Position numbers and translations under genes: made by a program
NCBI GenBank assembly: GCA_008632985.1
Contig: QPGO01000083.1
Location: 1 to 64,000 of the forward strand
Reading direction: 5' to 3'
DNA length: 64,000 bases
Origin: Psammoneis japonica
Lineage: Eukaryota
In this document: piece by piece, positions 12,241 through 60,029 of the stretch
Position numbering within the stretch: position 1 is the stretch's first letter
How the letters are laid out: each line of letters begins with the position of its first letter
The notes under the pieces: model-generated
Databases searched by the model: none
Told to the model about the DNA's origin: nothing
Seen by the model: the letters and a program-made list of their open reading frames with translations, nothing else

Positions 12241-15200
12241 TCAGAACGTCAATTTGCGTGACAAATGCAGCAACGCGTGGAGTTGTGGAGCGCTTCTTGA
12301 TTGGGACCATTGCTCTGAGCATTGGTCCATCAATGGACAGAGTGCAGTGCGTTTTCCTGTCCTCACTGCCTGCAGCCAGTGCCATTTAAAGTCAACGTCT
12401 TCTGCTTGCACTTCTTCCATTGTCCTTGTAAACCACCTGGCACACTGAGGTGAATCCAAGTGATGGTTGAAGAACAAATTGTGCTCTTCTTCAATCTCCC
12501 TGTCTAAGATGCTGTGTGCAGTGAGTTGCGATTCAGAGGCAGGGGATGCAGATGCTTGCATGCGTTGCTGCCACATGTCCCATGCTGTGTTCCACAACTG
12601 TTGCATCAAGCCTGCCACCCATCTTTTGCATGTGCACCTGCATCTGACAAAGTCACAATGAGCTTGTTGTGCTGCGGCCCATTCACTGGCCAAAAAACCT
12701 TGTGCAAATGAGCTCCCACCTGGGTTCTCTTGTGCTTTGAAGGCTTCCTGCATGTGTGGGTAATCCGAGCGTGGGTTGGGACTGGGAAGATCTTCGCACC
12801 AGGATGCAATGCTGCTGAGCACACCTTTCCAGATGTCGGGTTGTGTGAGGTTGTCAGTTGACCACTTTTCTGGGTTGGATGCCTTCTTCCTCCACAGTTC
12901 TTGAGCTGCAAATGCCTTGCATCACAGCACATGATCAATGTCTTTTTCATCCTTGCCGCATCTTGGACATGCTGGACTCTCCACCTTCTTCCAGCGGAAA
13001 AGCACGTTGTTTGCAGGTGCAAAACCGGTGTTCCATTTAGGTTGCCAGAGTTGTCTGAAGGTGGGGCAGCATTGCATCACTTTCCCAAGGGATTGCCAAT
13101 CAATTTTCAGTGGAGAGTGTTCCGTTCTCAGTTTCTTGTGCCAGCACTCTTCTGCCGGGGGTCCTCTTGTGTGATCCAGGACAGTTTGCTCTTGCCACAA
13201 AGTCAAGGTCTTACCTCGGAGCTGCACCAACCACATTGGTTGCTTGATTTTGCAGGGTGCTGTGTCGTCGTGTTGTTGGAGTGCTTCCCAGCACACCTTG
13301 GCTAGAAGATCCATTTTGACGTTCAGTTGTTCTAGGCAAGACAACTCTTGGAGAGGAGTGTTCTTGTCCTTGTGTCCTTCTGCCTCTGCCGCCTCCACAA
13401 CCACTGGCAGTTCTAGAGTCATTCCCCTGATTGGATGAATTAAGTCACAATTCATGAGCGATGGATCATCACATGAATTGCAGAAGCATGTCCGAAGTCC
13501 CACGTCACAGTCACAAGCCAATGACACTTTTCTGGAGCTGATGTTGCATTGTCTGCGCAGACGAAGGACAAACGCAACTGTGCCAAATGTGCCTCCCAAT
13601 TCTCCCCAGTGTGGTGTCAGATCATCCTCCACTCCAGGTGTTTGATTGGCTCCATGACATCTGTGTGTGTCTCCTTCACTTGGATCAAGAATCATTCCTG
13701 CGGTGGCCAAGCCGTCCTTGTGGGATCCGTCCATTGCACAAATCGCTGTGCCTGCTTCGATGCATCAAGCAAGAGCTTCCAAACTTGGGTGATGTCCGCA
13801 GGGAACAAAGGACCACTCAACATTGTCCAGAGGTCTCTCTGGGTCCCCTGTCCACAGCACCTCCAAAGTGGCTGTGGGGTTCATCTTAACACCTCTTCTT
13901 GTGACCTGAGTTGGCTTGGCATTGCGTGGCACAGTGTCCTCCATTCCATTTGATTGGCAACCCGCTCTTCTGTTGCTTCTTCGTTGGGGAGTTTTTGAGT
14001 GCATCTCCACACATCCATCCAGCTGACAGTGCAGTCTGTTGCAGCATTCCGAAAACCACCAATTCATTGTGGGTTTGCCTGTCCACTTCCCCAGAGGTCT
14101 TCTCAACAGCAGTTGTTCATTTCTGCCTGTTCTCAAGAAGCTTGCAGTTAGAGCTTCTTGCCACAGTCTCCAGCATGGTCTTGATGGGCACCCTGCTTTT
14201 GGCCAGCAGCACTTTGTCTGGCATTTTGTGGTGCTGTGCCAGCATTCAGGAAGAATCCTTTGCCCATCACCTGACACAACGTCCAACAGTCGCAATGAGT
14301 GCAGCCACATTCTGCAGATGTTGATCTTCTGCAGTTTCTCACCTTTGTGGCCATTTGCCTCCATCACTTCCATCAAGAATTGATCATTTTGCCACACTTT
14401 AGACACCACCCATGTGGGTGGTGTCAATTCAATGGAGTGCGCCAAGCAAAATTGCCACAGGGATTTCATCCAGGTTTTTGTTGCCAGGTTCCCAGCTTGT
14501 TGTAATCCAACAAGAAGACCAGGTTTTTGTTGCCAGGTTCCCAGCTTGTTGTAATCCAACAAGAAGACCTGATCTTCATGTCCCAGTTCCAGCACCATTG
14601 TCCAGTGCACCTGTTTGATCTCCATTCCTGTCATTGAAGCTGAGTCAATTTGTTGCAGAAATGCTGCCATTTTGGCAATGCCCTGCTTGACAAAGAATTC
14701 CGACAGACCCAGTCCGTTGAATTTCTTTGGTGCAAACAAATTTTTTCTTGGAAAGGAGCGTGGGCATCCCATTGCAGGCAGTGCCACCTCGCACAATGGT
14801 CTCTCCATTTGCACGCACTCTTTTTTTGTGAGCGAGGTGGCCGCCAGTGGGTGCTCTGACGATTTCATGATGCCACCTGCAAGAGAGAACCATGCTTCTG
14901 TTCCATTGAGGTGGCCGGAACACACTTGATCTGCCCATTTGACTGCCTTGGCCTCCATTGCTTCCACTTGCTCTGATGAATTCCATCCAAAGCAATGTGC
15001 ACCCCCAGTGACTCTCGTGCATCAGACACCTCAAGTCTTTCTGCTGCCACTTGGTTTCCTTTGTGATCCAGCAAGGCAATGTCTCCTGGGGTTTCCTCAA
15101 TGCTGTGGCACTCCCACCAGTCACTTTGCTGTTTGGAGGATGCAAGAGACCAGCAGCTCTTTTCTGGAGCTGAGGCTCCCCCGGCAGCACAAATTCCTCC

Positions 15201-18200
15201 TTCCCAGCAGTTTGACATGTCTTGAATTTCCTTCAATGCATCCTGGTGCATTGCATCATCACCTTTGGGAAAACATGGGAGGTCCGCATTGTCTGCAAAG
15301 GTGTGGCAAACACAGTGGTGTGCATGTTTTGAGACAGGAGCAACAGCTCGCATTCCATGTCCTTCCTCCTTGAGCATGTCAATGACTGGAATGCTGACAA
15401 CAAGCCACATTGCCGGAGCTGCTCCATGTCCTTGGAAGACACCTTGTGGTGGGATCTCAATGGCTCTGCATGGTTCCAAAGAGTCACCTTGCGCTGTTCT
15501 TACACAGTGCTTCATCTGCATGAGTGTTGCTTTCATCATAAACACCTCATCCTTGCCAGCTCCAAATCTCCGCATGCACAATGCCGCCGCTGCATGGAGA
15601 ATGCAACTGCAACACGATTTTGCGTCAGTGCTGTTTGTGGCACCCGGTCCATGTGATCAATGGAACATGTCACCTGTCAAAACCTTGTTCAGGGCGCAAA
15701 AAACAGCTTGGTGTCTTCTCCTGCTTCTGCATGCCTCCCAAGGGATCGCTCTGTGCATCTCTGCATTGTCAACCAGTGCTCTCGTGCAGTGCTTGTTCAT
15801 CTTGTTGTGCATTGCATTGAAGAGAACGATGATTTGCAGCTTCTTAACGTGTGTCGAGTCTGTCTTCTTTGGCATCATGACGTTGACAGCCTTTGTCCAG
15901 CATTTCGGCGTGCATCCATGTTTTGCTGGAATGGCTGGCATGCAAGTGTCCAACTCTGCTGTGGTCTCATCCTTGCAACCTGCTTCACAATCCAAGAAGG
16001 ATGGACCGAATGGACTGCTGGCTGCATGAGCCTTCATCTTCTTCCAGCCTTGTGCATGCTCCTTGGCAGTGCATTCCAACTTGAGATTTGGAAGTGGAGG
16101 GTCGGGTCTTTTCAGCTGTTTGATGTGCCTCACCGCGTGTTCATCTGCTTCTGGTGGAATCACACAGGTCCCATCTAGAACTCTTTGCTGCCAGAGCATC
16201 TGCATTGAAACCGAAGTCCTGCAGCAGGGGTTCCTTCACAAATGGAACTTTGCACTGGTCTGTGCTTGTTTGACCGCATCTTGATTGGCCTTCTCCTTTT
16301 CATGCTTCCTCCATGCCTGCCTTGGTCAAGAAAACCCTGTCCTTGCCATCTGGGCCTGGCACGGTCAATGTTTGTAGCGCCAATCGTGGTTTGCCCATCA
16401 TGCATTTAATGCATCTGAATGTCCTTTTCTGTCGGCAGCTGTGTCTGATCAGACGTTCTTCTTTCTCTCTGGAGGCACCGTGTGCTTCCGCTCTCTTTGC
16501 ACAATGGGTTTTGAACTCATCCTGCCTTGGTTTTGCTGCTTGGCATTTCAGCCTGTGACACCTTTTCATGGCTGGTTTGTGTTCTTGTTGGATTTGGTGA
16601 GGGCACAAATGCAGTGCGTCTTCTCTTCCTGTGTGTTTCATGTGCCGCTCTATGATCTTCATGCTGACTCATCGGAATTGGTGAAGCTTGGATGCCAGTC
16701 ACCACAGATGGATTTCCTTCCTTGCTTTGTCAATGACATTGCTTGATTCCACCTCATTCATGTGCAGTTTTCTGCATTTCTCCTTTGCTTCTTCTCCAAT
16801 CTGATGGTTGAGGTTGAAGATCATTTCATGTTCTTGTTGTTCTTCCAATCCAAACTCGTCCGCATTTTCCAGCCGGATGGCCCTTCTGAGGAGGTCATGT
16901 TTCTGGATCCCTTCCACTGCGAGTTTTGTGTGCTTCTTTATAACTTTCGGGTCTTTCAGCTTTGCTGCCAGTCAATCCGCCGCAGTGTCAGCCAACCTTG
17001 GTGGTGCACAGCCAAGGGCACTCGATTTTGATGCGTCAATCCATGACAAGCAATGATCGGAGGTGCAGTCGAATTCCCCGAAGCCAGTCATTCCTGCCTT
17101 CATCACTGTCAAAGAGGGTGAAACCAAGATTGCGTCCACCGGGACATTAGAGCGGTTCTTGTCACAGGTTGCTGCAGCGAGAAGGTCTGAATGGTGCTCT
17201 TTCACGGCATCAATCAGATTGAGAGACCTGTGCCATGCAATGAATTGGGTTCCTTGTACATTCTTGTTGAAGTCACCGCCCAGTGCAACAAGATCTCCAG
17301 CTTCTTGCCATTTCTTAATGCATTTGGCCAAGTCTTCTAGAACCCCCTAGAACCACTTGTCTTGGACATTGGAGATCATTGTTCAACACCAAGTGTGTTT
17401 CTTGCTGTGAGTGTGCTCTTCCCGGGTTTGCTTGGTTGTCTCGAACAGGTCGGCAAACCGTCATGATTCTTGTGTGAATCCCTGATTTTCCTCTCAACTG
17501 ATTCCAGATCCATCTTCCTGAGCCTAAGGGGTCTTCTCCACTTGATGCAAGGTGATGGTTCACCGATCTTGTCAATGGATGTCCCACGCCTCCATGCTGT
17601 TGCTTGGTTTCTGCCAAGCAGTGTTTGTTTGTTGCCACAAGGGAGCCACTGCGTGAGAGGTTCCTCCATCCATCTTTCCATTGGTCAAATTTGGGGATTC
17701 TCGCAAAGTTGAGGTTGATTTCCACTGGTCCCAGCACATCAGCATGATGATCATTGACCCAGTTCATGATCCCTTTGTGTTTGTCTTCTGCCAAAGGGGA
17801 GACCGGCAGACTGACCAGTGCCAAGGAGTTACGCTGTGAGGTTGAATCCTTTCTGTCCGGCACGGGCAGGTGCCGCAAGAGCCAAGAAGTTGCCGAGGAG
17901 TTCGCCGCCGCGCTCCAGGCTGAGCCCATCAAGACGCTCGGATGCGCCAAGCTCGCCCAACTGCAGATGAGGCTGGCTTGCTCCCTCATTGTTGTGCTTG
18001 ACAGCAGTTTTGTCACCCCAAGATTCGTCCAGGCGCTGACTGTCATTTTCCTCATTTACATCCTCCTTTGCAGTCATCAACATTCCCACTGAGGACGGCG
18101 GAGACTGGGGATCTTGACCCGCTCCCTCGGCCTGGGAGCTGGGAAGGTCTTCCAAGACATCATTTTGGATGTCTTCTGGGGCCGGACCACTGTTCGAATC

Positions 18201-21898: not shown

Positions 21899-21899
<1 letters not shown>

Positions 21900-23918: not shown

Positions 23919-25013
23919 TTAAGCACGACGACGGAGCTGCTGGTTGTTCGCGGCGTGCTCGTCATCAACAAGTTCACGAGATCCGTGAGCGTAAAGATCG
24001 TCATTCATGTTGTCGGCCTGGGACCTCATGTCCATGCACATCTTGTCAAAGCTCGAGGCTGAAATGAGATGGCACTTGCGGTCAACCTGCCAGGTGATGG
24101 GAGCAAACGGGGAGCACATCTCGTTGTCACGGGAGGTGCCGGTGGTGGAACCAGTGTACTTCGCAACATCAGTTCCCTTGTCACCATCGACAATCATACC
24201 TCGGAATAAGTCGGGGTAGTGGTAGTTCTCATCATTGACAATGGTAAAGACTTGGGACTGAACACCAATCTGCTGAGCAGTGTTGGTGATAACGTCGTCG
24301 CGGCAAAAAACACCATCGTAAAAGGGAGTCTGGTACTGGAAGGGCGTACCACAGGCACCAGCAGCAGAGTGGGGCCAGTGAACTTCGTAGGTTTGGCCAA
24401 CCATCATACCAATACAGTGCTGCCAGTCAAAGGGAGTGGTGAACTTGGGGTCGTTTTCATCATAGTACTTGCAACGGAATCCCTGACGGCCTTCGTGGAA
24501 ATCAAGGGGACCGGTGCCGTTCTCGTCAAACTCACCAGCGGAGTAGTGCTCGGCACCAAGATGCCAGTGTACATTGACGGGGCACAAGCCGGCCTCAAAG
24601 TATGAGGTGGTGATGGGTTCAGCGTCGGTGTCCCTATCGCCATTGTAGCCCTTGGTGACGTTCGAACCGGATTGCTCGCCGGTTTGGGTCATCTCGTCAA
24701 TCACACAAGCAACATTGGGCAACTCGGGACGCTTGCCCTGGCAAGGGTTGGGTCCTTCAACGGTGGCGACCTCCACCTTCTTCTTGTTCTTGTTCCTTTC
24801 GTTGTCGCGATCAACAGCGAGGTAGATGGTAGAGATGAGGAGACCAATGGTACACGCCCCAAGGAAAGCCATGAGAAGCTTCATCCTCTTGAGCTGAACC
24901 TTTGCCACCATCACCGTTGCGCCAGAAGACGAAGCACGACTAGCATCATCTTGGTGGCCAGTCTTCTCAATGGTGGAGGCGCCGGTCTCGATTTCGGTGG
25001 TTTCCTTGCACAT
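23919..25013 (-). CDS. Delta-class carbonic anhydrase with N-terminal membrane anchor
   Basis: Intact 364-aa ORF. Motifs LCPVNVHWHLGAEHYS, YEVHWPHSAAGAC, YTGSTTG, CS...PITWQVDRKCHLISASSFDKMC. Hydrophobic segment LLMAFLGACTIGLLISTIYLAV. Confidence 0.93.
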   Translation of the reverse strand: MCKETTEIETGASTIEKTGHQDDASRASSSGATVMVAKVQLKRMKLLMAFLGACTIGLLISTIYLAVDRDNERNKNKKKVEVATVEGPNPCQGKRPELPNVACVIDEMTQTGEQSGSNVTKGYNGDRDTDAEPITTSYFEAGLCPVNVHWHLGAEHYSAGEFDENGTGPLDFHEGRQGFRCKYYDENDPKFTTPFDWQHCIGMMVGQTYEVHWPHSAAGACGTPFQYQTPFYDGVFCRDDVITNTAQQIGVQSQVFTIVNDENYHYPDLFRGMIVDGDKGTDVAKYTGSTTGTSRDNEMCSPFAPITWQVDRKCHLISASSFDKMCMDMRSQADNMNDDLYAHGSRELVDDEHAANNQQLRRRA

Positions 25014-25188
25014 GGTGTGTGTTCTTTCAGATCTTTCAGATGCAACGATGAATCATCCACGGATTTTGTGAGAAGTGTTTGGTGTTTGTGAGCGAGCAGT
25101 GAGAAGCGCGGAAGAAGGATGTACTCGGATTGGCGTGCTGGCGTATCGAGTATCGCTCGAGAATTCACAGCTTCAACATTTCTTGCCA

Positions 25189-27929: not shown

Positions 27930-30900
27930 ATGGCAAAGCCAAAGGAAAGCATCTTCCCTCATGGGGCGGTGCTGCTGCAGAAACGTTGTCTGTGACACTT
28001 CGTGCACAAGCCCGCTGAAGTTTCCACTCATGACTGTGTCGTGAGGGCTGTTGAAATTAATGGCCATGTCTCTCAGTTTTTGCCTGTGATGCAGGGAGGA
28101 GCAACACCGGTGTCATCACCCAATGACGAACTCTGTGACTTGATTGAGTGCAGAGTGCCAAATGCGTGGCAGAAGATCATGATGCTACAGAATTTTGACC
28201 CGTTGGCTCACACCATGTTCGAGTTTTTCCAATTCTGCAAGCGGGTTGAGCAGGTCGAGTCTGCCGAAGGTAACCAGGACCAACATGTTAAGGTCCCACG
28301 CAAGCGGGGCCACAGAACGGACAATTCTGAGTTGTTGATCATGAATCAGAAGAACACCCAGAAGTCGTGCATGCTCCACGGGACCAACTGTGGACATCAC
28401 ACTGACGATTGCTTCTCAAACACTTCAACTGATCCCAATGGGCGGCTCCATCATTTGTCATGCCAAAGAAAGACTCAACGGTGTGGTTCATCAATGACTT
28501 CAGGGAGCTGAACAAATGGATCAAGCGATCACCTTGTCCGATCCCTCATGTCCAAGATGTGCCACCAAAGCTCAAAGGCTTTGTGTGGGCTGCATCATTG
28601 GATCTTAATGTGGGTCATCATCACATTCGTTTGGACACTGACAGCAAGAAGCTCTGTGCACTCATCTTCCCGTGGGGCAAGCATGAGATGCAAGCATTGC
28701 CCATGGGGTTATGCAATTTGCCAGACATCTTCCAAGAGTGCATGTCAGGCTTGTTTGAAGATCTGTCATTTGTTCAAACATGCTCAGATGACCTTCTTGT
28801 CATGACAAAAGGCACCTGTGAAGATCACCTCAAGAAACTTGAAGAAGTGCTGTTGAGGGTCCAGAAAGCATGACTTGAAGTTAACGCAACTAAGTCGCAC
28901 TTCTGCCAAACCCAATTAGAGCACTTGGGTCATCTTGTCAACCGTGACAGCAGGCGGCTAACACCTGCAAAAGTTGACACCATTGAACGCATTGCAAAGC
29001 CTGCAAATGAGCGTGACCTGCACTCATTTGTGGGTTTGGCAAACTGCTGTGCCGCGACATGTGGATCAGACGTTCTGAAGTCTTGGCTCCACCAACACAA
29101 CTCGTTAGCAAGACTGTCAAGTGGGAATGGACGTCCGTTGAAGACAAGGCATTTGAAACCGTCAAGCGGACACTGTCAGAAGATGTGTTGTTGACACATC
29201 CTGATTTTAACAAACCCTTTGTGATGTGTGCCGATGCCTCTAAACGTCAATTGGGAGCAGCCACATCCCAGGACAATGAACCAATCACATTTCATGGCAG
29301 AAAGCTTGACAGCACGCAATTAAATCACACAACAATGGAGAGAGAATTGCCCACCATTGTGGAGATGTTGAAAGAATTTCGAACGACACTCCTTGGTCAT
29401 CGTGTGGTCACACACACTGATCATAAAAATCTCACATGTGAAGCATTCAATGCCGAATGCATGATGCGCTGGTGGTCAACATGTGAAGAATGTAGTCCCG
29501 AATTACAACATGTCAATGGTGCCCACAACCCAGTCGCTGACGCTCTTGGTTGCCTTCGGCTGGCACCACCTTTGCCTTCCAAATCCAATCCGGATGCAGA
29601 GGACACTCCATCGAGTTGTCCCTTGCATGAAGCTTTCAATGCAGACGTGCCAGACGCCTCACCTGCACCTGTTGGCTTCAAGCGCATCCAAAAAGAGCAA
29701 CAACAGGACAAGCGCCTGCTGTCACAAGCTGAGGACTTGTCTGACTGCTCCATTTGCGCATGTTGTGGGGGAGGGTCATCACGACAGTCAATGTGTCACA
29801 AGGACAAAATTGCAGTGCCACAGTCATTGCAGGTTCCGTTAACTGAATGGCACCACGAAACACTGTGTCATCTGGGTGAGACACATGCGGAAACATCTGT
29901 TGCCCAGCACTTCTGCTGGCCCAGTGTGAGGTCTATGGTGCATTCTACATGCATTGAGTGCAAACGATGCCAGAGGACAAAATGCCAAATGCAGCATCAT
30001 GGGAAGCTGCCAGAAAAGGTCGCTGAGACAATTCCATGGGAGACTCCATGCACAGACATGACAGGGCCCTGTAAAATCCAAAGATGCGGAAAGGACACCT
30101 TGCAATTGTGGGCGGTCACTGTGATCAATCCAGCAACCAGATGGTTCGAGATCAAGGAAGTGTCTGCAAAATGCGCAGATGCAGTGGCAAACGTCGTGGA
30201 ACAAACCTGGCTGTGCAGATGTCCGTGGCCAACCCAGACAGTGTGTGACCGTGGGACAGAATTCATGGCAGAATTTAGCCAAATGATCAAAAATGACTGT
30301 GGGATTCTGAAGAAACCCACAAGCAAATGCAATCCACAGGCGAGTGCCACAGTCGAATGTGCACACCAGACACTTGGCAATGTGGTGCGTTCATTTTCAG
30401 CACATGACATGGAAGTGGACGAGGATGACCCATGGAGTGGCATTCCATCTGCTGCAGCCTTTGCCACAAGAGCTGCGGCACATGCAACCACATGTGCAAG
30501 CCCCGCGCAATTGGTCTTTGGACGCGATGCGGTTTTGTCCATTGCCCATCGTGCCAAGTGGAAGCACATGGAAACCAGAAAGCAGAAGCTTGTCCACTTG
30601 AACAACGAGCATGAAAATCAGAAATGCAAGGAGTGCCAACACACCGTTGGACAATTGGCACTTGTGAAACAAGAACAATCTTCTAAGTGCGGTTCTGACT
30701 GCTGTGCAGGACCTGCCAGAGTTGTCTGTGTGTGTGACAATGGCACATTGTGCACCCAGAACGGAGCACTGACAGATGCGTGCAATCTGTGGCAGATTGT
30801 GCCCCATCACCAGTGAGACATTCTGTCACTCAACGGCCCTGATCATGGGGGAGTGTGCAGCATGCCTCAGTGCTGGACAACACGGCGCAACCATGCACAG

Positions 30901-35479: not shown

Positions 35480-35700
35480 GATTGAAAATGGCTCACATGT
35501 TTGAGTCAGAGAACCCAATTGCAATTGCTCCAAGTTGCACCCCATGTCCAAGAAGGGCATTTTCCTTGGGTGTTCATCTGATGCCAACAAGCACCTCCTG
35601 TGGCGGGATCCTGAAACCTCTCAGATCAACAGGGGCATGTGTGTGCACTTTGACGAGGACCCCCCTTGTACAAAGGATCAATGCAATCCAGACCCTTTGC
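35480..35700 (+). mobile_element. Copia-type post-integrase fragment
   Basis: KKGIFLGCSS...WRDPETSQINRGMCVHFDE (from GIFLGY...V.FDE). Confidence 0.6.
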
Positions 35701-37703
35701 CTTCTGGTGACCGTGATGGATGTGAAAAAGCTTCATGCTCTCTTCCTCACCTCAGGCCTTGTCTTGTTGGAGCAATCATGCATCATTTGAAGATTCCAAG
35801 ATGGATGCTGCCACACTGAGTCTGCCAGCCACAATCATGCAGATGTGACTCACAATGAAGATGCAATTTTAACAGGTGCTTGGATTGATCCCATGAGCAC
35901 CACTGTGCAGCACATCAAGTCTCCTGCATCTGTTGTGGTTCCTGTGAGTGAGCCATCTGCAGTGGTTGCTGCTGGTTCTCTGGCATTGCATGATGAATTT
36001 TGGAACTTCCCCATGACATCAAGGATGTTTTGCTTCAGCCCCCAAGCACTCATTGTGACATTTTGATTGTTTTGTGCCATGGTGGCATTGTGCACAAGAC
36101 AGAAGGATCATTCTCTCTTTCCAAGATTGAACCAATGCTGTCACAAACTCCTGCAATGCTGTCATTTGACAAGGACAGTTGTCATCACCACATGAACAGT
36201 CACCCAGTTCCCTTGACTTTGGATTTTTGGCTTGGCCGTTGTCAATTTCAGATCTGCACCACTGCCAATGCTCACATTGTCAAAACAAGACTGACAGCAA
36301 CAGGGTGACTGTGAAAGAGGGCCATCATGTTTTGTTGTTGTCCGCCATTCCACCTCCTCCATCTGATGGGCTGGTCGCAAGTTGCAATCAACGCCACTTG
36401 TGTGAGTCTGACAGCTCTGGTCATGTCTCCCCTTGCAGATGACAATCCAAGCCCACCTCTTTAGATGACATCAAAACACAGTGCCAAGCATGTGCAAATG
36501 AGTCAGTGCAGCACACAATTGACTGCAATGACATGTCCATGATGGGTGCCCCTTTGCACGGCATTTCAGCTCAAATGTCACTCACCGTGCATCCATTTTC
36601 TTCCAAGGTGGACGTAACTTGTGGTTCTGTTCCCTCTTTTCATTCCAGGTTCCAGGTTGGATCAAGGTGTGTTGCATCCATTGGTTTGGCTGGTGTGTTG
36701 CACATGTTGTTTTTGACCCTTTCCACCATCATGGTGACACTCGCGTTTCACAGTTTGTGCCATTGCTTTCAAGCAATTGTTCTGCAAGACATGTCCAAGA
36801 CTCACCAAAGTGACAAATGCCTTTGTTCATTGCAGGGCTGCATTCACTGTCACTGTCATCCAAAGACCACATTGCCAACTGCAACCACCCCCCAAGCCTT
36901 TTGATGACTTCAATCACAAACCACAATCAACCGACCAATTCCTTTTACCTTTTTTTAGAAGAACCTTTGTCATCAACAATTTTTTGTCCAATGACATCCA
37001 CTGCAGTCACTGTTGAGCCTCCCAACCATCTGAAAGAGACTCGCGTGACACTCGCGTGCATTGATTGGGATTTTCTCCCAATTTTAGAGTGTTTGCTGAA
37101 TGGAATTGCTCCTCTGCCCCTCAAGAACACTGCATTGGTGACAGATCTCCAATTTGCATCTGACCCAATCAATCCCAAAACTGTTGGCATTCCCAATGTG
37201 GCACCGGTTTGGCTGTTTCTTTTAGCACCAGCTGCTCCAGCATGCATTGACTTTCTTGGAGAACTGACAACAACACGTGGTGACAATGCACTTGATGTGG
37301 ATGCTAGAACAGATCCCATGAATGGAACTTTGCTGGACATCAAGTCTGCCAAGTCTGATGTGATCCCCAGCAGCAAGCCATCCACAGTGAATGGAGCTGG
37401 TTTCCCAGTGCTGTCTGCAAGATTGGTGGCATTTTCTGCAAACGTCAATGCCAGTCTTCTTCAGACCCCTCAGTTTTTGGCTCTGACAATTCCAGTGTCA
37501 CATGCAATGGCGGCCATGCTCCTCTAAAGGATGGAACATGCTCCATTGCCAAGGTTGCACATGAGCTGCTTGCCGCCTGTGCAATGCCATTGGATGACAC
37601 TTGTGGACGCTGCAAGAAATCAGTTGATTGTCAAACTGGTTTGGCCGTTGTTAATTTTGGATGTGGGATGCTGTCATTCCTTCTCTCATCTGAGCCCGAC
37701 CAG

Positions 37704-38567: not shown

Positions 38568-38757
38568 ACTCAAGACTTGGTTGACATGCAAGATTTGTTG
38601 GAAGCTGCCTTTGACTTTTTTGTTGAACACTCCAATGGATCAACACACTCACCCTGAATTTATTTCTTTGGTGCAAGACTCGATTCATCTTCAAGATTTG
38701 TTGGAAACTGCCTTTGATGTTTTTGTCGAAGACTCCGTTGGATCAGCACATGCGCCC
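38568..38757 (+). repeat. Diverged tandem duplication, ~103-bp period
   Basis: caagatttgttggaa.ctgcctttga.....tgt.gaa.actcc..tggatca.caca occurs twice (QDLLEAAFDFFVE / QDLLETAFDVFVE). Confidence 0.8.
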
Positions 38758-39747: not shown

Positions 39748-40377
39748 CTCAAGACTTTCGTTGGGCGCCACACCAACTTGTGGTGGATTCTCCAAGCAAG
39801 GGCGTTCCAAGCCATGCGAAGCGTTGTCTGTCAAAATTACAGAGCCCTTGATTGTGTCATTGTAAAAGGCACGAAAGAGGCTCATTGTCGTTTCCGCGTA
39901 CTTTGTGCCGACTGAAAAAGTAATATAAGCGCATTGTGACTTCCAAGAGAGTGAAGTTGAAATTATTATGATTGCAAATTCACTTGCGGCCAACAACATG
40001 TCTGCTCAAGGCTGGTGTCAAGATTTATGAAGTCTGGGCCGATTCACAAGTTCCAGGATCCGAGCATGTAAATGCCAAGAAGAACGCAGTAACGACGCTT
40101 CACACCAAGGAGTTCTTTGTGGATAGCACGGAACTCTTTATTGAGTCTTTCAATTTTGATCCGCGTTCGGAGGAACTCAACACGGAATGCGGAGTGATCA
40201 TTCGTGACTCCTACCTTACAGACAAGCTTTCCGTGCCAGCTAGTCAGCTGTAAGATTGAGAAATTGCAACCAAGAGGAGAGAACAATGGCACCGCCTGAA
40301 AGCAATCATTGCATTACCCTCGGCACTACGGCTTCTATTGGATGAGAGTGATCAAAGCAATTTTTTGATAATCTTAT
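39748..40377 (+). pseudogene. Partial duplicate of the PLD gene 3' half and 3' flank (2945-3773)
   Basis: High nucleotide identity to 2945-3773 with ~40-bp and ~160-bp deletions, a frameshift, and TA->CA/TG and CG->CA/TG substitutions. Confidence 0.93.
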
Positions 40378-40841
40378 CGCCCTGTTGTCTTTTCAATTGC
40401 TGCAGTCTAGTCGTAGCTGCGGGCACCGAGAGAGGATGCGAAACAATAACGGAGAAAGCAACGGACGCTGATGCTCACTGCGACAAAATGACGGAACCAC
40501 GAGTGCACATGCATGGCACTATTCGCAGCTAAACTATTGACTTGAATACTACATGCTTTTGAAACACGGAGCGAAACTTTTTGTCGTTCAAATGAATAAG
40601 CTGAACAACAGTCGTCCTAGTCCTCTTCCGCTGCGACGTACAAGTCGTTCGCTCAAACTATATACAAGAAAATCTGCTAACAAATATGCACAATAATGAA
40701 AGGAGCTGTCATCCGAAGGCCCAATGAGCTTCCTGGCGGTAACGGGCGATCACTGGATCAAGAAGTTGGATCCTCGCTGCGCGACTCGTTCTGGCTAAAT
40801 GAACATGCAAAATGAAGATCATGCCGCTCTTCGCTCTTGGC

Positions 40842-50687: not shown

Positions 50688-51231
50688 AAGGCGCTGGATG
50701 TCGCATGAACTACGTAGTTAAATGGAGTTCGACGTGCCTTTAATGCACCGATGTAAGAATCAGTGTAATGGAAACAGTGCCTACGATGGGCAAATGTAGT
50801 AGCTGCCGGTAGAAGAGTCGCGGCACGGTGAGGCAAAAAAGCCCTCTCGACAGTCGCAGCTTGCTTGCTTTAGAGGCACAATAAAGTCGGGCGAACAAAG
50901 CAAGGATGCTCATTCACTCAGCCATTGTCACAGCCAGTTCTGCTGTATCGTTGTCTACATTTTCGCTGTCAATGAACACATCACCAGCTGGAACAATGGG
51001 GAAGGGAGGAAACACAGTTTGTCCGTGGTGGCAGCTGTCAAAACACGCATCTGCTGTGTTTGCCTCCCACAATTTGTGAAGGGAGGAAAAGCGTGAATGG
51101 ACAAGGAAACAAAATAAAGTTCAAGTGAAGGCTGGTGGTTGCATTTTTTGATGCATTTGGGCACTGCACCAAACTCTGCTGGAGCTGCACAACCAGCAGC
51201 TTGTCACAAAGTGCTGCCATCGCTCACCTTC

Positions 51232-51278
51232 TGACAGAGATCCCTGCATCTAAGCAGGAATGACACGATCCACTAAGA
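51232..51278 (-). repeat. 3' LTR (47 bp)
   Basis: tgacagagatccctgcatctaagcaggaatgacacgatccactaaga; 44/47 identical to 55437-55483. Confidence 0.9.
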
Positions 51279-54200
51279 CCCCCACACACTGGGAGAATCG
51301 TGACCCCTGTGAGTCTGGGTGCACTGTTCTTCTAGTGAACAGTGCAGTGGTGTGTCATTGCTGCCATCTAGCACGTGGGAGGGATGGTGATGTCCACTCC
51401 CAAATGTCGGAAGAACAGGATGCGTGCCACATTTTTGGTGAGCATGTTGCTGCAATTGGCTGATGTGTCAATGCGATCCAGTTGAACTAAGTCGTGTTCG
51501 ACCCAGTCTTGAAGAGCAAAATGGCGAATGTCAATGTGGCGGGTGCGGCGGGTGGGTTTGCTTGTGGTGGCCATCTTGCAGGGATGCATCATTGTCTTCG
51601 TACACCAACGCAGCTTGCATCTGGGGGACTGACAGTTCATCCATGACAGACCGGAGACACAGTGCCATCTTGCCTGCATTCAATGCAGCGACAAACTCAG
51701 CTTCCGATGAAGAGGTTGATGCAGTCAGTTGCACTCTGGTCTTCCATGCTGTTGCGGCTCCCGTGAGGAGAAATGCAATGCCGGCAATCGAGCGGCGGTG
51801 TCGGATGTCGGCAGCCCAATCAGAGTCCTTGTAACCTGTGAGTTCGGCAGGAGATGATGCCTGAGGGGGCAAAGGCACACGGTCATGGGGCACAGTCATC
51901 GGAGGTGGAGGAGGAACATGGGGGAGCGTCAGGTTGGATTGTTGATGCCAGCGTGCAAGGCCAAAGTCGGGGTGATGCTTGAGGCACCGGAGAGAGTTCT
52001 TCACACCTTCACAGTGCAGTTGTCCAGGATTAGAGCCGAGTTGGCTCAGCTTGGTGATTGAGTGGCTGAGATCCACGTGGGTGGCAACCATGGCCCACAT
52101 CAATTTGCCAACGGCCTTCCAACAAGAGAAACCCTGTTGTTGTTGAAGGGTTTTAGATGCCTTGGAGTCGGCTGGAGTGGGAGCCTCATCAAGGGATTTG
52201 GAGCAGGAGGTGTCGCCGGGCATCGGGATGGCGGGAGGCGGGCTGAGTTTGTCATCGGCCAGGAAAGCACAGTCAGCCAAGATCCTCTTGATGCTTGAGG
52301 TGCTGTGCAACCGGATGTGGTCTTTGGTCTGTTCAACATCATAACCCAGAAACAGGGTGAGCAAGCCCTGACGTTTGATCTCATCACCGGTGAGATGTTC
52401 ATCCACAATGTCGCATGTGCGTTGACATGTTGCGTCCGAGTCCACAGCAACAGCAAAATCATCGACTTGCCGCAGAAATGGCGCCTCTTTGCTGTTCACG
52501 GTGCCACTGTAGATGCATGGTTCATGGGTGGTTGGGGCAAGATGCAGGTGTTCACGGACAATCTCATCCACATGCATGCTCCACAAGCGGGGAGATTCTG
52601 GATGGCCTTGGAGAGCTCAGAGCACAGGCAGTGCGCAGCCCTCAAGGATGGGAGGGCGACCCAGGTGTTTGGTCCACCAGTTTTGAAAAACTTCATCCAC
52701 TCTCATGTGGAAACATTGCTTGGGAGGAGGAGCCTCAGCGAAGGCGTCACTGACATCCGCACCACACCCGTTTGTTCTTGGGTGCTGCCAAAGCAAAGAA
52801 CAGGCGAATGCTGGGTTGCTCAACAGACGCTGCGCATGTCTGTGCCATTGTCTGGACAAATCCAGCTCTGGGGCTGCCATTGCATGCTCCATGGGCCTTC
52901 TTGGCACGGGCCAGATTGTTCTTAACCAAGTGGGACCACACCCATGGGAACACTGCGGCTCCCGGAGGGGCAGGAATGGGGTCCCCAAACATGCCTTGGC
53001 TGTTGTACATGTCAAGCTGTTTGAATTCACCCAATTCCCAGTCCGGCCAGTCTTCCTGCATCTGGAGTTTCCGGCGTGTGAGCTTGTACAATGAAGGGAG
53101 AGCAGGGTCATGTGGGGAGTCTAGCTGATGGCGGACATGGTTGATCTGGTCCAAAAACAGTTGTGGCAATCCTGCAGCATCCAAGGTCGGTGACCGGCAG
53201 TCATGGGCAAAGCGGAGAACAATGTCCTGAGTGTCTGGATTGATGTCTTCTAACACACGGTCGAGGTCAGTAAAATCATGGACAGGCCGAGTGTTGACTG
53301 CGATGAGGCATGAGCGTTTGAGTTCGGATCGCCATCATGGTGTTCTTGCCGCCTGTGATCCAGGGCAACAGTGACGGAGTCGCAGTCGATGGCGGCGGGG
53401 GTCACAGTCAAACTCAAAACCCAATCTTGGTTTTCTAGACCCGCGGCTGGGCAAAGGTACATCAAAAGAGTCGTCACACGGATCGAAGGACATCGCAACA
53501 TTGGCAACGGATTCGGGGGTGACGGGGTCCTTGGATGCAAAAGCAGCAGCCATCGCGTGACATTGGGCATTGGGAAACAACGTGTTTTCACCAAGCGGCA
53601 AACCCTGGATCAGGCTCATCAGGGGGGGGGGTGGAGACAAGCCTTTGTGAGCACAAGGGGGGGATGTGGTGCTGGGGTCGCTGGCTGGGGTGGAGGCGGG
53701 GATGGAGGTGCAACCTGTTGGATTCCGAGATCGAATGAGAGCTGTGGACCAGGAGGTCCAATCGGTTGAGAGAAGTGTGCCTCGTCATGCGTGGCATGCG
53801 GAGTAGACTTCTCTCATCTGGACGTGGCATTCACATGGTGCACATTGCCGTCCATAGCCGAGTGTCCAATGAAGACACCGTGGAAGGCATGTTTGTCCAA
53901 TTTAGCAGCCGGTTTGCCAGGACGCCAAGCACACATGCAAGATCCAAACGCTCGGAGATGTGACAAGTCAGGAACCTCACCCGTCCATGCCTGGTGTGGA
54001 GTCACATCTGTGGCAGAGTGCCACAGCCGGTTCTTGAGGTGCACCACGTGGGTGAGTGCATCGGCCCAGTGTGTGGCCGGGAGACCCGATGAGCACAGCA
54101 GAGCTCAAACCATTGCTCCAAAGGTCCGATTCAAAATCTCGACCCTGCCATTCTGCCACGGGGCGTCCACGCCGGCAGGCTCCACGACACAGTCGTGTTT

Positions 54201-55436
54201 CAGGCAGACCTTCCGGAATTCCTCAGAGTGAGCCAATTCACCACCTTGATCTGCCCTGACCGCGCAGGTGCCATTGGTGTGCTTGTGCCAAGCTGGGAAG
54301 GCATCCACCAGTTCAATCGGTGGGTCCTCACTCGGGGTGAGGAACACCCACGTATGCTGAGTCTTGGCATCCATGACGAGCAGATGCGAATTGTGCCCAT
54401 CACGTGATTGCACAATGCGCTCAATGCCTTCCTTGTCGCACTGTTTCTTGAGCGTGGTTTCATGTCTGGCCCAGAAGCACGCATGCACCCGCAGTCCATC
54501 TGGAATTGCACCGCTGGCTCCAAGTCCGCATCGTCCTGTTGGGATCCCATGGGGGCGCGCCCATGCCAGGCATCATTGCATGCAGAGCATGATCGATGGG
54601 GATGAGGTGTGGCATCAGCGGACGACGGGACACCTGCAGCATGTCGGCACAGGTGCGACAGTTGGTGCATGCCAGGGTGACCCAGGCGATGGTGCCACAG
54701 TTTGCTGGTGGCGATGCATTGAAGGGAGGACAGTTGTGGTTCTGGATCATCGGACGGGCCCTCACTGTGGCTGGGATGCTCGGGGACAGGGTCCATGGGT
54801 GCAGGGGATGATGGGACATCCGAGTCAAGTTGTTCGTATTTGCTGGGAGGATCAGGCACATCGAACTCACATCCAAGGTCTCTCGATGTCAGTGGATGCA
54901 TCTGCAACGTTCGCATTGCACCCTCCAGTTCCGTGCAACCGTCAGTCAGGGGTGCATCAGGGCAGAGGCGCGGGACAAACCATGAGCCGTTTGCGCGTAC
55001 CATGGGAAAAGACCGGACAAGTGAACGGTCACAATTGGTCACTGTTGACATTCCATGTCCAGAATCCTGAAAATGCGAAGCATGGCATTGGTTGCACTGC
55101 TCTAGCAGGCACCATGGTGATCGACAATGAAAATAAAAATCGATGTCATTGCACCATGCAGGGGCAGTGTGGATCGGATCTCTGTGGCATGGACCCAAGG
55201 AGATCGTGATGTGCGTAGAAGGCACACTGATGCCCATGCAAGCAGCCGCAAAAACAAACGGCAATGGCGTGAATCAGTGTCCAACAAGTGGACGTCATTG
55301 TCATTGACAGAGCGGCAAAGTTTACGATGCAAACGCTCTCTGCCGGTGTCGTCGATGATGAAACGAGAGGAAAATGTGTTGTCAGCAGTGGTGGAGGAGC
55401 CTTGCTTGCACGTCTGTGTAAGCGTTGCTCACAACC

Positions 55437-55483
55437 TGACAGAGATCTCTGCATCCAAGCAGGAATGACACGATCCACTGAGA
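55437..55483 (-). repeat. 5' LTR (47 bp)
   Basis: tgacagagatctctgcatccaagcaggaatgacacgatccactgaga; bounded by the TSD and the PBS. Confidence 0.9.
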
Positions 55484-55488
55484 CCTTC

Positions 55489-56060
55489 CACTGTTTTGTG
55501 GTGCCAAAGTCAGAGTTGTCTCTTTGTTGAGTCTCATTGTGCTTGTACATGAAGAGAAGTCTGGGGAGTTTCAGCAACTCAAGTGGATCATCCCCAATGC
55601 TGGGGACAACTGGGGCTGCCCTGCACTCTCTGCTTCATTTGCTTGGTGCAACAGCCATCTAAAATCTTGGTGAATGCAGCTGTCTTGTTCTCTTTGAACT
55701 GCTTTGCTTTGTCACAGCAGTCAGGCATTGTTGCTGTGGACACTTTTAAGGTGGGCTTTTTGAAATCAAAATCATTGCATTTTACATCTTCAAAAGACCT
55801 TGCCACAGGTGTGCCTTGCTCACACACCTTTTGAGTGCAACAGATGATCTTCTTGTCCTTGACATCTTCCTGTGTGGCATTGCATGCTTTGCTGTTCAGT
55901 GATGAAGGACAAAAGTTTATCACAGGCTGAAAGCTCTTCTTGGTGTTGGTCTTCTTTTTCAGATTGGAGCACCTGTGACTCTTGCCACCTCTGCCACCAT
56001 GACTGCAACTTTGGCCTTGGCTGCTTGTTCTGGTTGTGGGGGTTTAAAGTGCTCAATTGG
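55489..56060 (-). mobile_element. Older gag-like remnant into which the Copia inserted (probably continues at ~51226-50950)
   Basis: KQFKENKTAAFTKILDGCCTKQMKQRV...LLKL..LF pattern resembles LTR gag. TA- and CG-depleted on both sides of the TSD. Confidence 0.4.
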
Positions 56061-56809
56061 CTGCATGCAGGTCATTGACCATTGCATCAGAGAGGTGTGT
56101 GGGTGGACAATGTAATGAAAGAGCAGGAGCAGGAAAATGCTGCAAGCAGAAGCTTGCTCTCAACTGACATCAACCTGAAGTGCAGTGTTTGCACTTCTTG
56201 AGTTACAGCAGCCACCATTGCTGTGCAACTCAGGGCCCCTGCACTGTGTGCNNNNNNNNNNNNNNNNNNNNNNNNNNNNNNNNNNNNNNNNNNNNNNNNN
56301 NNNNNNNNNNNNNNNNNNNNNNNNNNNNNNNNNNNNNNNNNNNNNNNNNNGCAATTTGTGGGACAGGCATCCTGTTTGTGGTGCTTGGCATGCAGTGCAT
56401 TTGTGTGCAGATTGCTCGGCCAGAGACAGACCATTGAGAGGCAGTGGTCTGTGCCCCTGATGCATGAGTGGGGGGTTGTTTTCACAACATGCTTCACTCC
56501 TTGACACTGGTCATGTTGCAGAAGCAGCATGCGACAAGCCTGTGAGTGCTGAGTGGAGCTGCAGCAAGCTTGCTCCTCACACAACCCCCTGTTCACAAAC
56601 CACAAGTGCGTCATGGCAGAGAGTGGAGCACACACATTGCAACTCAAAGCAATGGAACAATTGGTCAAATCTGCCTGCTTGGGTGCCAGTGTTTTGCCAC
56701 ACTTGCTTTGACATGATTGTTCTTCAACGAACTCCACTTCTCACAATTCTCAAATTGCACAACAAGAGCAACCCAGGATGACCAAACAACAAGAACAAAA
56801 GCTTGCCCC

Positions 56810-57870
56810 ATGTGCAGCATCAAGACCAGCGACAAGGACAAGGAGGCCCCTCAAGGTGTTGCCATGACTTTTGTCAGAAGCAACAAACTCAAGCAGATGA
56901 AGTGTCTTCTTACCTTCCTTGGAGCCTGTGCATTGGGCTTCTCATTTCCACCATTTGCCTTGCCATCAATTGCAACAATTGTGATGATGACACCAAGGAG
57001 ATTTGGAGATGTAAGTTCCATTGCTGTCTGAAGGACCCAACCCATGTGCTGGCAAGAACCCAAGTCTGCAAAATGTGCCTTGCAGCATGACAAAAGAACA
57101 GGCCAGCACCATTGTGACTGAGGGATGTCATGGCAAGTTCAAAATGACCACAGTCCCCATCACCACCTCACATGCTGAGGCTGGCTTGTGCCTGTCAGTG
57201 TCCACTGGCACACTGGTGCAAAGCACCTCTCAGCAGGTGAGTGTGATGAGCAAGGCAAAAGCCTGTGCCATGACAATGGTCATCATGAACTTGCCAAATG
57301 CGCACGCCATGGTTTCAAGTGGTGTCATGTCTTTGACAAGAGGAACCCCAAATTCACCACTCCATTCAACTGTCAGCACTGCATTGGTTTGGAGGTTGGT
57401 GAGATCTGCAAAGTGCACTGGCCCAATTCAGTTGCCCGAAAATGTGGAACGGCCTGTCAGCGCCACAGACTGACTTTTACAATGGAGTCTTTTGCACCGA
57501 TGTCATTGCCAAGATTGGTGCTCAGGCCCAAGTCTTTGTCATTGTCAATGATGAAAAATGCTGTGACTCTGACCTCTTGCATGGCATGATTGTTGACGGT
57601 GACAAGGGTGCAAACGTTGCTGTCTGTGCGGGTTCCATCACAGGCATGTCACACAACAAAAGCATTTGTTCTCAATGCTCACCCATGGTGTGGCAGGCAG
57701 ACCACAAATGTCATTTGATTTCTGCCTTGAGCTTTGACAAGCTCTGCCAAGACATGAGAGGTTGCAGTGTAATGACATGCATGATGACGCGCATCCTCAC
57801 GGTTCTCAAGAGCTCATGGTGGACGAGCATGCCACCAACAACCACCAGACCATGCCTCGTCGTTGTGCTG
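56810..57870 (+). pseudogene. Hypermutated delta-carbonic anhydrase pseudogene (diverged paralogue of 23919-25013)
   Basis: Frameshifted segments KLKQMKCLLTFLGAC; EGPNPC.GK; PITTSH.EAGLC/PVSVHWHTGAKH; PKFTTPF.CQHCIG; VHWPNS; GMIVDGDKG; WQADHKCHLISA.SFDKLC; HPHGSQEL.VDEHA.NN. Confidence 0.93.
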
Positions 57871-58588
57871 GCTCTTTGTGCTTCAATGTTTGTTGCAGCA
57901 CAAAAGGAGTGTCCACATGTGTTTCATCAGTGTGTTGTTCTGTTTCTTCATGAGCATTGGCCTTCGGGGGGCAGCAGAGTGGTCTGTTCATTCCTTGTTT
58001 TTGCCAAGTCAATGGCATTGTGTTTCCACCCCAAGCTTCATCTCTCCATTTCTTCAGGGTTTTCCAAGAGATTCACAAGGCCCTGTTGGTTTCATGTGTC
58101 CCAAGCATGCACACAAGACCTCCTCTTTTCATTGCGCGCTTTCCCATTTGCTCAACGAATCATTGCGAGCAAGCCATTTCATCAAGAAGTTCGTTGAGTT
58201 GCATGTGCCTCCTACATAAATCTTGGCACAAGCTTCGTTATGAGAGCAGCATCTCAAGGGCGTAACTCTCCTCTCATCAAGCTTGATCCATCGAAATCCT
58301 CTCTAGTATTTCTTCCATGGAGCTGCAGAACGTTTCGAGCGCACTGCGGCAGCCACCATCCATTGTTCTTTCCACATCCAGGAACTCTCAAGCTGTGTCC
58401 ATCATGTTGTGTATAACACATAAATAGTCTTGCACACACGTCTCTGTCACTCTTTGTATTGTGCAGCCTTGGCTCGCTGTGCTTTGAACGAAAAAGAAAG
58501 AACGTCACTTTTGCATCTCCCATCAAGGGTGATCTTTTGTACGACTACAGTATGAAAAGTCGAAAAGTGCAAAAAGTGATTTATTGAG

Positions 58589-59854: not shown

Positions 59855-60029
59855 GATGTAGTAGAGTCAATCCTGCTGTGCAAACAGCAAACAGCATCGC
59901 AGCAGCGCAAGCTGTCGCTCAAAAGCTAAGCGGCACATTATGAACATGAAAGCCGTGCACTGACCGTCGTCCGGTGATTTGTCGATGGGCACTTTCACTC
60001 TTGTCACCAAAAAAACGACAATCGCTCGT

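Follow-up and report, generated by a model that had tools for sequence, protein, structure and literature searches.

The question raised by this locus is how a retrotransposon can lose nearly all of its TpA dinucleotides (TA) while keeping most of its CpG dinucleotides (CG), in the midst of DNA that has lost both. The stretch analysed here (the window) comprises positions 1 to 64,000 of contig QPGO01000083.1 from the Psammoneis japonica assembly GCA_008632985.1, and the element in question is a degenerate Ty1/copia-type long terminal repeat (LTR) retrotransposon on the minus strand at 51232..55483, recognised by its Pfam domains, homologues, composition and frame breaks. An earlier note, made from the letters alone, had proposed that TA loss is uncoupled from CpG decay and faster than it, and that the two signals could serve as a two-phase clock for dating insertions. 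The explanation that we favour, and regard as probable, is that a dead Ty1/copia copy lies in a silenced block that has been rewritten by a TpA-targeted A:T-to-G:C process together with a slower decay of CG.

The gene order on the minus strand of the element is gag/pre-integrase, integrase, reverse transcriptase (RT) and RNase H. This copia-type order is given by Pfam matches to remnants of the GAG-pre-integrase domain (54578..54718, minus strand, PF13976, E 4e-07) and of the integrase C-terminal SH3-like domain (53859..53984, minus strand, PF25597, E 3.9e-08), both of which lie 5' of an open RT/RNase H frame of 361 aa (51534..52616, minus strand). That frame was characterised through its homologues and their tyrosine columns. 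Of 6,578 candidate proteins 301 matched it at E <=0.001, the strongest at E 4e-88 and 46% identity, and its relatives carry PF07727; no match to Pfam RVT_2 was obtained at E <=0.01 in the decayed copia frames. The element is bounded by two LTR-like terminal repeats of 47 nt, which is unusually short for LTRs, with the 3' repeat at 51232..51278 and the 5' repeat at 55437..55483 (both minus strand). Outside these stands a 5-bp target-site duplication, CCTTC, at 51227..51231 on the left and 55484..55488 on the right, intact as the earlier note had said. Six contigs of a public sequencing run end their match precisely at 51232 and then run into mutually dissimilar sequence, and because they diverge exactly there this position is supported as a real element terminus, common to other copies elsewhere in the genome. 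One contig (record 5, 55441-55693) spans the right junction. Summed contig depth over the element exceeds that of the flanks, and as depth is not copy number only the divergent ends were used to recognise other copies.

Similarity between the two ends of the element reaches 59 nt at 90%, which is 10 nt past the repeats; at one end this extension falls in the putative primer binding site (PBS), at the other in the flank. The hexamer GCTCAC precedes both terminal repeats at equal distance, within the left flank (51222-51231) and within the putative PBS (55427-55436), and this extra similarity could be due to chance, to insertion-site preference or to recombination history. The putative PBS itself, GGTTGTGAGC on the minus strand at 55427-55436, adjoins the 5' repeat, and the earlier note had read a TA change into it by comparison with a Copia PBS motif. 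That argument is unsupported. The proposed unmutated motif is present in two of 80 related loci (L025 and L053), and in L025 it lies at 5551-5560, thousands of bases away from the sole repeat pair (1-229 and 7574-7802). The degenerate form GGTTRTGAGC matches once in the window, a result equalled by chance in 34 of 100 shuffles. A search for terminal repeat pairs in ten related metagenomic loci found none in eight, contig ends or the flank limit having cut them.

Over 51232-55483 (55% G+C) there are 195 CG, an observed/expected ratio (o/e) of 0.61, and 30 TA (o/e 0.14) against the 211.7 expected from base composition. The DNA that hosts the element has a CG o/e of 0.31 in the 275 bp on the left and no CG in the 763 bp on the right, where 42 would be expected. 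Because the element is nested in CpG-exhausted DNA, it is younger than that DNA, and a relatively younger insertion has thus lost most of its TA and kept most of its CG. The counts on which the earlier note relied were exact (23 CG and 1 TA in 54001-54420, 1 CG and 2 TA in 46501-46920). Its description of the element as the structurally youngest is right in so far as the copy is younger than its surroundings, but the copy is not very young in itself: the polyprotein has at least six frame breaks, which leave it in seven frames or more, and for this reason it is to be regarded as dead and not especially young. The nested element also provides the sole age comparison, since no other LTR pair is present within the window. 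Among eighty metagenomic copia relatives (31-47% identity) TA o/e ranges from 0.46 to 1.06, with a median of 0.79, and the median CG o/e is 0.83. TA depletion is not inherent to copia elements. If these medians are taken as the starting point, decay in the element amounts to 1.73 log units (-ln) for TA against 0.30 for CG.

When the window was divided into bins of 500 bp, no bin combined low CG with normal TA, while three had TA <0.2 with CG >=0.7. Together with the state of the nested element (TA 0.14, CG 0.61) this bears out the claim that TA is lost faster than CG. The claim that the two losses are uncoupled fared less well, as they share the same domains and are correlated (rho 0.75 over 125 bins, and 0.50 among the 97 that are depleted), and TA falls further, from 0.09 to 0.05, where CG is lowest. 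The scaling together of both depletions, which the earlier note had itself named as evidence against its proposal, is therefore present in part. A different reading of the same data holds that TA decays uniformly and fast, saturating soon after any insertion, beside an independent and slow CpG clock, so that the pair of signals would date insertions. It draws on the difference between the nested element and its host DNA (CG 0.00-0.31), on the empty class of bins with low CG and normal TA and on the unequal decay in log units; the correlation inside the depleted bins speaks against independence. For this and for reasons of locus and sequence context given below, we think such a clock unlikely.

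The signature extends over most of the window. Taken as a whole the window has o/e values of 0.20 for TA, 0.47 for CG, 1.63 for CA and 1.59 for TG, and TA o/e is below 0.2 in 93 of the 125 bins, with a bimodal distribution, a depletion much greater than chance would give. The depleted share is about 47.6 kb of the 64 kb (~74%). Three classes of block can be described: gene blocks (~15 kb; TA 0.58, CG 0.88, CA 1.26, TG 1.18), CpG-richer depleted blocks (~28 kb; TA 0.09, CG 0.44, CA 1.68, TG 1.62) and CpG-poor depleted blocks (~17 kb; TA 0.05, CG 0.15, CA 1.85, TG 1.90). The remaining 12 dinucleotides stay at o/e 0.84-1.24 in all three classes, and AA, AT, TT, AC, AG, GA, GT, TC and CT shift by no more than 0.2 between gene and depleted blocks. 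The TA and CG that have been lost are approximately matched by the CA and TG that have been gained, both overall and within each flanking context. The enrichment of CA is about as strong as that of TG in all depleted blocks, and likewise on the sense strands of the elements; from this, and from the replacement of tyrosine by both cysteine and histidine described below, it follows that both DNA strands are affected by TA loss. Ordinary CpG decay is superimposed on TA loss in the same domains.

Such a composition might in principle be produced by sequencing or assembly, for instance if a modified base at TA were read as G or C. The window does contain two runs of N (128 nt at 2411-2538, inside a PLD-like gene, and 99 nt at 56252-56350, right of the element and within its depleted domain), and the assembly method is not given. 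The TA-poor sequence is repeated by contigs from a run of accurate reads (X1), with four different letters in 1541 nt over 56351-57890 and, at a word depth of ~55-60, 0-4 differences per 0.6-1.5 kb. As these contigs carry the same TA-poor letters, the sequence is not a base-calling artefact, and the depleted sequences also show frameshifts, deletions and CpG decay. We consider an artefact to have a negligible chance of being the explanation.

Tyrosine is coded only by TAY, and conserved tyrosines are for that reason a built-in record of TA loss. Columns in which at least 60% of homologues have Tyr were counted in three decayed sequences: the RT/RNase H frame of the copia element, a large RVT_1 retroelement (12310..17809, minus strand) and a pseudogene of a host delta carbonic anhydrase (57029..58194, plus strand, with Pfam PF10563 in two frames). 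The homologues used were 60 of the 120 listed for the copia frame, 13 of the 14 for the RVT_1 element and 60 of the 120 for the pseudogene. One of nine Tyr columns is kept in the copia frame, the others having become Cys (4), His, Arg, Trp and Ser (1 each); one of 23 is kept in the RVT_1 element (10 Cys, 8 His) and one of 12 in the pseudogene (5 Cys, 2 His). When the three are pooled, 3 of 44 columns have kept Tyr, and Cys has taken its place in 19 and His in 11, while about 69% of the conserved columns other than Tyr are kept in the same sequences (718/1043, hand-summed). The functional delta carbonic anhydrase gene of the window (23922..25052, minus strand) is TA-normal and served as a control; it has kept Tyr in 11 of 13 columns and the conserved residue in 206 of all 219, and the difference from the decayed sequences in Tyr is significant (Fisher p = 1e-7). 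Arg codons, the CpG counterpart, have changed to Cys, His, Gln, Trp or stop.

The direction of change can be followed at the level of nucleotides in the pseudogene, which is 64.5% identical to its functional paralogue over 874 aligned columns. The paralogue has 20 TAs, of which one is kept, six are TG and four are CA in the pseudogene (10 of the 19 changed), and of 49 CGs seven are kept, 12 are CA and 12 are TG (24 of the 42 changed). As judged from these alignments, the loss of TA is mutational and runs from TpA to CpA or TpG. Many viruses are reported to suppress UpA together with CpG (PMC3829696), and this lends some plausibility to selection on RNA or DNA words, whereby low UpA/CpG would evade RNA sensors or nucleases, or TATA-like or stop signals would be avoided. 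Yet the changes seen here ruin conserved tyrosines of catalytic domains and accompany frameshifts, both strands and a dead host gene are affected, and relatives of the element elsewhere are TA-normal. We accordingly give this explanation almost no weight.

That the loss occurs in place, after insertion or duplication, was indicated first by the terminal repeats of the copia element. These are identical at 44 of 47 positions, as the earlier note had it, and the three mismatches are C/T, TA/CA and TA/TG, with both of the TAs in the left copy (51232-51278) and the two corresponding sites of the right copy now CA and TG. The probability that at least two of three random mismatches would fall on the four TA positions is 0.016. 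The LTRs were identical at integration and are now unlike at both TA sites, so that TA was lost in place. Tandem repeats lying in depleted DNA at 7500-8300, 37700-38200, 38560-38757 and 60000-61230 have units of ~100-420 bp and copies that are 68-82% identical. Where copies share an ancestral TA or CG and it decays separately in each of them, adjacent CA-versus-TG doubles are to be expected between copies, and pairs of tandem repeats contain 9 such doubles in 336 aligned bases, 6 in 146, 13 in 318 and 0 in 95. Other genomic copies of the copia element differ from the window copy by transitions at 180 places and by transversions at 35; among 40 of the ~250 difference rows there are four CA/TG doubles, ~6 single CG differences and two single TA differences, and this sample is no more than suggestive of decay in place. 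TA loss thus arises in place, and the contention of the earlier note that it represents real TpA to CpA/TpG mutation after insertion, chemically distinct from methyl-CpG deamination, is upheld.

These observations bear directly on the idea that editing takes place within the retrotransposition cycle, with an adenosine deaminase acting on RNA or cDNA in the manner of ADAR or APOBEC and pre-edited copies then integrating. Three of the depleted units are retroelements, and several near-identical copia copies are all TA-poor where they were sampled, as this idea would have it. But depletion is just as strong in the host pseudogene, in the tandem repeats and in flanking DNA outside the element, the sense strand has gained CA and TG to the same extent with Tyr changed to both Cys (19) and His (11), and the two LTRs of a single insertion are unlike at their TA sites while copies show CA/TG doubles. 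Because of these in-place differences, the involvement of both strands and the depletion of pseudogene and flank, editing of sense-strand RNA before integration is excluded, and editing in the cycle more generally is very improbable.

The copia element lies inside a TA- and CG-depleted domain at 50957..58212 (no strand), defined by TA positions and flank composition, whose edges are sharp: there is a TA every 20-60 bp as far as 50956 and once more from 58213 onwards, and there are only about 40 in the 7.2 kb between. The domain lies between the 3' ends of two convergent TA-normal open reading frames (ORFs) and contains old CpG-free DNA, the copia element and the carbonic-anhydrase pseudogene. 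Abrupt edges of this kind are difficult to reconcile with a genome-wide neutral bias against TA in which purifying selection alone keeps TA in genes and no targeting is involved. In support of such a bias, all recognisably non-functional DNA in the window is depleted, the host pseudogene included, and gene blocks are themselves mildly TA-poor at 0.58. However, the junctions between codon positions 3 and 1, where changes are mostly synonymous, retain 111 TAs of 216 expected in eight TA-normal ORFs, as against 0-10 where 19-37 would be expected in ORFs of decayed elements. Non-coding pieces beside genes likewise have TA o/e values of 0.40-1.24 (the 1,180 bp at 22742-23921, for instance, contain 76 TAs), apart from 4400-5000, which has a TA o/e of 0.18 and runs into a depleted block. 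TA loss is regional, in that genes, their synonymous sites and nearby non-coding DNA retain TA, and we regard an untargeted bias as improbable.

A further point against an untargeted bias, and against a clock, is provided by a partial, deleted duplicate of the PLD-like gene (2945-3773) at 39748..40429 on the plus strand, which straddles the edge of a depleted domain. TA is absent from 39001 to 39837 and dense afterwards. Seven of the 25 TAs in the duplicate have changed to CA or TG, all of them in its left two thirds (five of ten in the first 255 nt, two of seven in the next 231 and none of eight beyond), and two changes are in the reverse direction. Such a gradient suggests that TA loss has leaked in from the depleted block next to it. 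The right part of the duplicate, which is neutral sequence, retains its TAs, and with ~26 other differences in ~680 nt a clock of uniform rate would be hard put to account for the loss of seven TAs only. In the copy, the 2945-3773 sequence is followed immediately by 50 bp whose present counterpart is at 22692-22741, which suggests either that the ~19 kb of transposon-rich DNA now separating the two came in after the duplication or that the copy has lost it by deletion. The possibility that 39748-40429 is a spliced retrocopy was considered and rejected, the missing segments lacking GT..AG ends and being coding in the parent gene.

The flanking bases have a marked influence on whether a TA survives. 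When survival is expressed as depleted blocks relative to gene blocks, it is highest in CTAA/TTAG (0.58) and TTAA (0.51), intermediate in CTAG (0.19) and GTAA (0.16), and low in ATAA (0.09), GTAC (0.07), CTAC (0.055), ATAG (0.04) and ATAC (= GTAT; 0.015), with none of 49 surviving in ATAT. This dependence is highly significant (chi-square p 2e-33), and an additive model based on the base that follows the target A (T > C > G > A) fits the survival values fairly well, so that TA loss appears to prefer a pyrimidine after TA. Both TAs kept in the left LTR are in CTAA, the most refractory context, and this explains their survival in an otherwise TA-stripped element. Since TA loss depends on locus and on sequence context, the latter alone changing survival more than 30-fold, it makes a poor clock, and the proposal in the earlier note that it be used to date insertions is not sustained.

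We propose, in the light of these findings, that a block of repeats and pseudogenes, already silenced and older than the element, would have received a Ty1/copia insertion that duplicated 5 bp of its target. TpA-targeted A:T-to-G:C transitions, turning TA into TG or CA on either strand, would then have acted on the block while sparing active genes and neighbouring non-coding DNA, and would level off at a TA o/e of ~0.05; a slower decay of CG to TG/CA, as expected of methylated CpG, would have proceeded in the same domains. The specificity for TpA, the direction, the symmetry between strands, the regional confinement and the timing in place are all observed in the window, and the cause may be an enzyme directed to silenced chromatin, with TpA mutation possibly serving as genome defence. 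The CG to TG/CA pattern is present in the depleted DNA, although methylation is not readable from sequence. As to chemistry, deamination of adenine in DNA (A to inosine, read as G) is somewhat the better candidate, the main alternative being a mis-pairing modified thymine such as 5-hydroxymethyluracil. Protein-family scans found no ADAT2-like DNA adenine deaminase encoded within the 64-kb window.

Several considerations weigh against the explanation that we favour. Regional confinement has been shown within one 64-kb window only, and the age argument consists of one nested insertion and one 47-nt LTR pair. The ancestral states used to establish direction are stand-ins, namely a paralogue or homologues at 32-47% identity, and the flanking-base preference is provisional, as the surviving TAs may include newly created ones. 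None of the 80 copia relatives from other samples shows the signature of TA loss. The targets are not only foreign DNA, as they include a host pseudogene and DNA of unassigned origin. TA and CG loss may have one cause, for example a single enzyme that edits both A and C; run X1 may represent the assembly's own sample and would in that case not be independent support; and the process may be extinct, a sequence alone giving no mutation rate.

The closest known system is that of the chlorarachniophyte Bigelowiella natans, the one organism for which the literature searched describes this signature. In mutation-accumulation lines of this alga two integrated viral regions mutate at ~6e-7 per site per generation, and 230 of 231 new mutations are A>G or T>C, all at TpA, a rate at TpA about 1000-fold above background (Mettrop et al., bioRxiv 10.64898/2026.01.13.699255). 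Hypermutation was seen in 11 of 15 lines only. The targets are integrated DNA of nucleocytoplasmic large DNA viruses (NCLDV) and virophages, of foreign origin, and windows of 1 kb that are poor in TpA and rich in CpA and TpG form 124 clusters in which RT and DDE domains are enriched; an ADAT2-like deaminase has been proposed, as a deaminase-type defence (bioRxiv 10.64898/2026.01.13.699255). Diatoms and flanking context go unmentioned in the text of the preprint. From its figures (211 mutations, 6,169 TpA, 3,132 line-generations) we compute ~1e-5 mutations per TpA per generation and a half-life for TpA of ~63,000 generations. At such a rate TA loss would be near-instant on evolutionary time, which is compatible with the pattern in the window. 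The reported activity in 11 of 15 lines and on some viral inserts only describes a process that is episodic and locus-specific, and this is a further argument against a clock.

The window resembles B. natans in the change of TpA to TpG/CpA on both strands, the confinement to regions and the footprint poor in TpA and rich in CpA and TpG. It differs in several respects. The host is a probable diatom (and so a stramenopile), as opposed to a chlorarachniophyte rhizarian. Depletion is much deeper here, reaching an o/e of 0.05-0.09 compared with a Rho of 0.45 given for the NCLDV region of B. natans. About 74% of the window is depleted, and it is not viral inserts that are hit but LTR and other retroelements, along with tandem repeats and a host pseudogene. 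TA loss here shares its domains with CpG decay and shows a preference as to flanking bases, and what is seen is a footprint. A search of the literature turned up no account of diatoms with depletion or hypermutation at TpA, and the window probably represents a new lineage for this kind of hypermutation, at saturating intensity.

Comparison with better known systems is also instructive. In ascomycete fungi, repeat-induced point mutation (RIP) changes CpA to TpA (C to T), enriches TA and hits both copies of a duplicate before meiosis. As in RIP, dinucleotide-specific transitions in the window ruin transposons and duplicated genes, leave a regional o/e signature and leak into adjacent DNA. The direction is the opposite one, with TA at 0.05-0.09 and CA/TG at 1.6-1.9; moreover, TAs are lost from the copies of the carbonic anhydrase and PLD-like genes but not from the functional genes themselves, and sequence that is present once at 90% identity is also depleted. 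Methyl-CpG deamination decays silenced transposons in vertebrates and plants, and CpG-methylated transposons in diatoms. The change of CG to TG/CA in the same domains, and a CpG o/e that falls with relative age, are in keeping with such decay. Deamination of cytosine cannot, on the other hand, remove TpA, and TA loss is a separate A:T-to-G:C reaction that runs ahead of CpG loss. ADAR (A-to-I hyper-editing) and APOBEC3 (G-to-A hypermutation) act on RNA or single-stranded cDNA, are strand-asymmetric and have their products fixed only via reinsertion, and ADAR favours G after the edited A. The window shares with these animal systems, where the changes are made by deaminases, the clustering of transitions in mobile elements. 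It departs from them in that the changes arise in place, on both strands and also in DNA that is not of retroelements, and T or C is preferred after the A. ADAR also favours U before the edited A (as cited in bioRxiv 10.64898/2026.01.13.699255).

A bolder form of our proposal is an inverse RIP, in diatoms or at least in the Psammoneis lineage, and this we put forward tentatively, rating it at a little below an even chance. An enzyme system acting on silenced chromatin, probably marked by 5-methylcytosine, would edit the A or the T of TpA on both strands, with a preference for a following pyrimidine, and would spread a few hundred bases into adjacent DNA. In a short evolutionary time it would wipe nearly every Tyr codon and every TAA or TAG stop from transposons and dead genes.

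Other features of the window can be described more briefly. The RVT_1 retroelement aligns over ~1,875 aa in four frame segments and is near full-length when compared with its relatives, which are proteins of 1,800-1,900 aa from environmental assemblies (best E 7e-57); it may be of the DIRS, the Penelope or another class. It contains a perfect 49-bp tandem duplication (100%) at 14470-14567, which is either very recent or an assembly slip. A Ty3/gypsy remnant with RT, RNase H and integrase (28433..30813, plus strand) has a TA o/e of 0.13 and a CG o/e of 0.47, and there is not a single Tyr codon in its 599-aa frame. A second copia remnant, an integrase SH3 domain at 35505..35816 (plus strand), belongs to the most CpG-poor class, the 1.3 kb around it having a TA o/e of 0.02 and a CG o/e of 0.15.

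By protein similarity the organism is most probably a diatom. The best named relatives of the carbonic anhydrase are from Corethron, Seminavis, Thalassiosira and Nitzschia (53-61% identity), and the nearest protein-atlas clusters of the window's proteins are mostly from Bacillariophyta. The decayed duplicate of the carbonic anhydrase lies 32 kb from the intact gene and in inverted orientation. A gene for a diatom pyrenoid-shell protein (62161-63999, PF25192, E 7e-50) adjoins the pseudogene, and carbonic anhydrase and pyrenoid shell may together form a neighbourhood of carbon-concentrating genes. The TA-normal ORF at 49854-50684 (plus strand) resembles HEPN/RES N-terminal domain 1 weakly, with a score below the threshold (E 5e-04; 20.8 bits, the cut-off being 27.4). 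Over the gene region at 50136-50876 an X2 contig shows 35 different letters and 26 gaps in 751 nt, X1 being a close match; the X2 variant may be a second haplotype or a paralogue. Two C-rich blocks (20001-22000 and 42001-44000, with GC skews of -0.36 and -0.34) each adjoin a gene block. Kinship between the C-rich skewed blocks was considered, and no relation was found at the protein level between 20-22 kb and 42.9-44.1 kb.

Depleted blocks are without TAA and TAG, so that TGA is the only stop codon left, and long ORFs occur in all six frames. There are 78 stop-to-stop frames of at least 150 aa in the window, most of them without a family match. Few matches rose above the curated score in a Pfam scan of the 218 stop-to-stop frames of at least 100 aa, and most of the depleted DNA is without family assignment.

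These properties have practical consequences. In TA-free DNA, where only TGA stops are left, long spurious ORFs arise and gene finders would over-call, and decayed elements escape searches with protein profiles, their Tyr, Ile and Arg codons having been rewritten. Dating by LTR divergence would be inflated unless TA and CG sites were masked. The order T > C > G > A constitutes a fingerprint that can be compared with the mutations of Bigelowiella and with candidate deaminases. If the phenomenon is real and targeted, a second, distant and ecologically dominant group of algae uses TpA-specific editing of DNA against mobile and dead DNA, and what has been described in Bigelowiella would become general. 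It would also be tractable, as several diatoms are transformable and have methylome and chromatin maps, so that the enzyme and the targeting signal could be sought by knockout. Taken together with Bigelowiella, TpA editing would then be a widespread genome defence of algae of the SAR (stramenopiles, alveolates and Rhizaria) clade, and not the curiosity of a single species.

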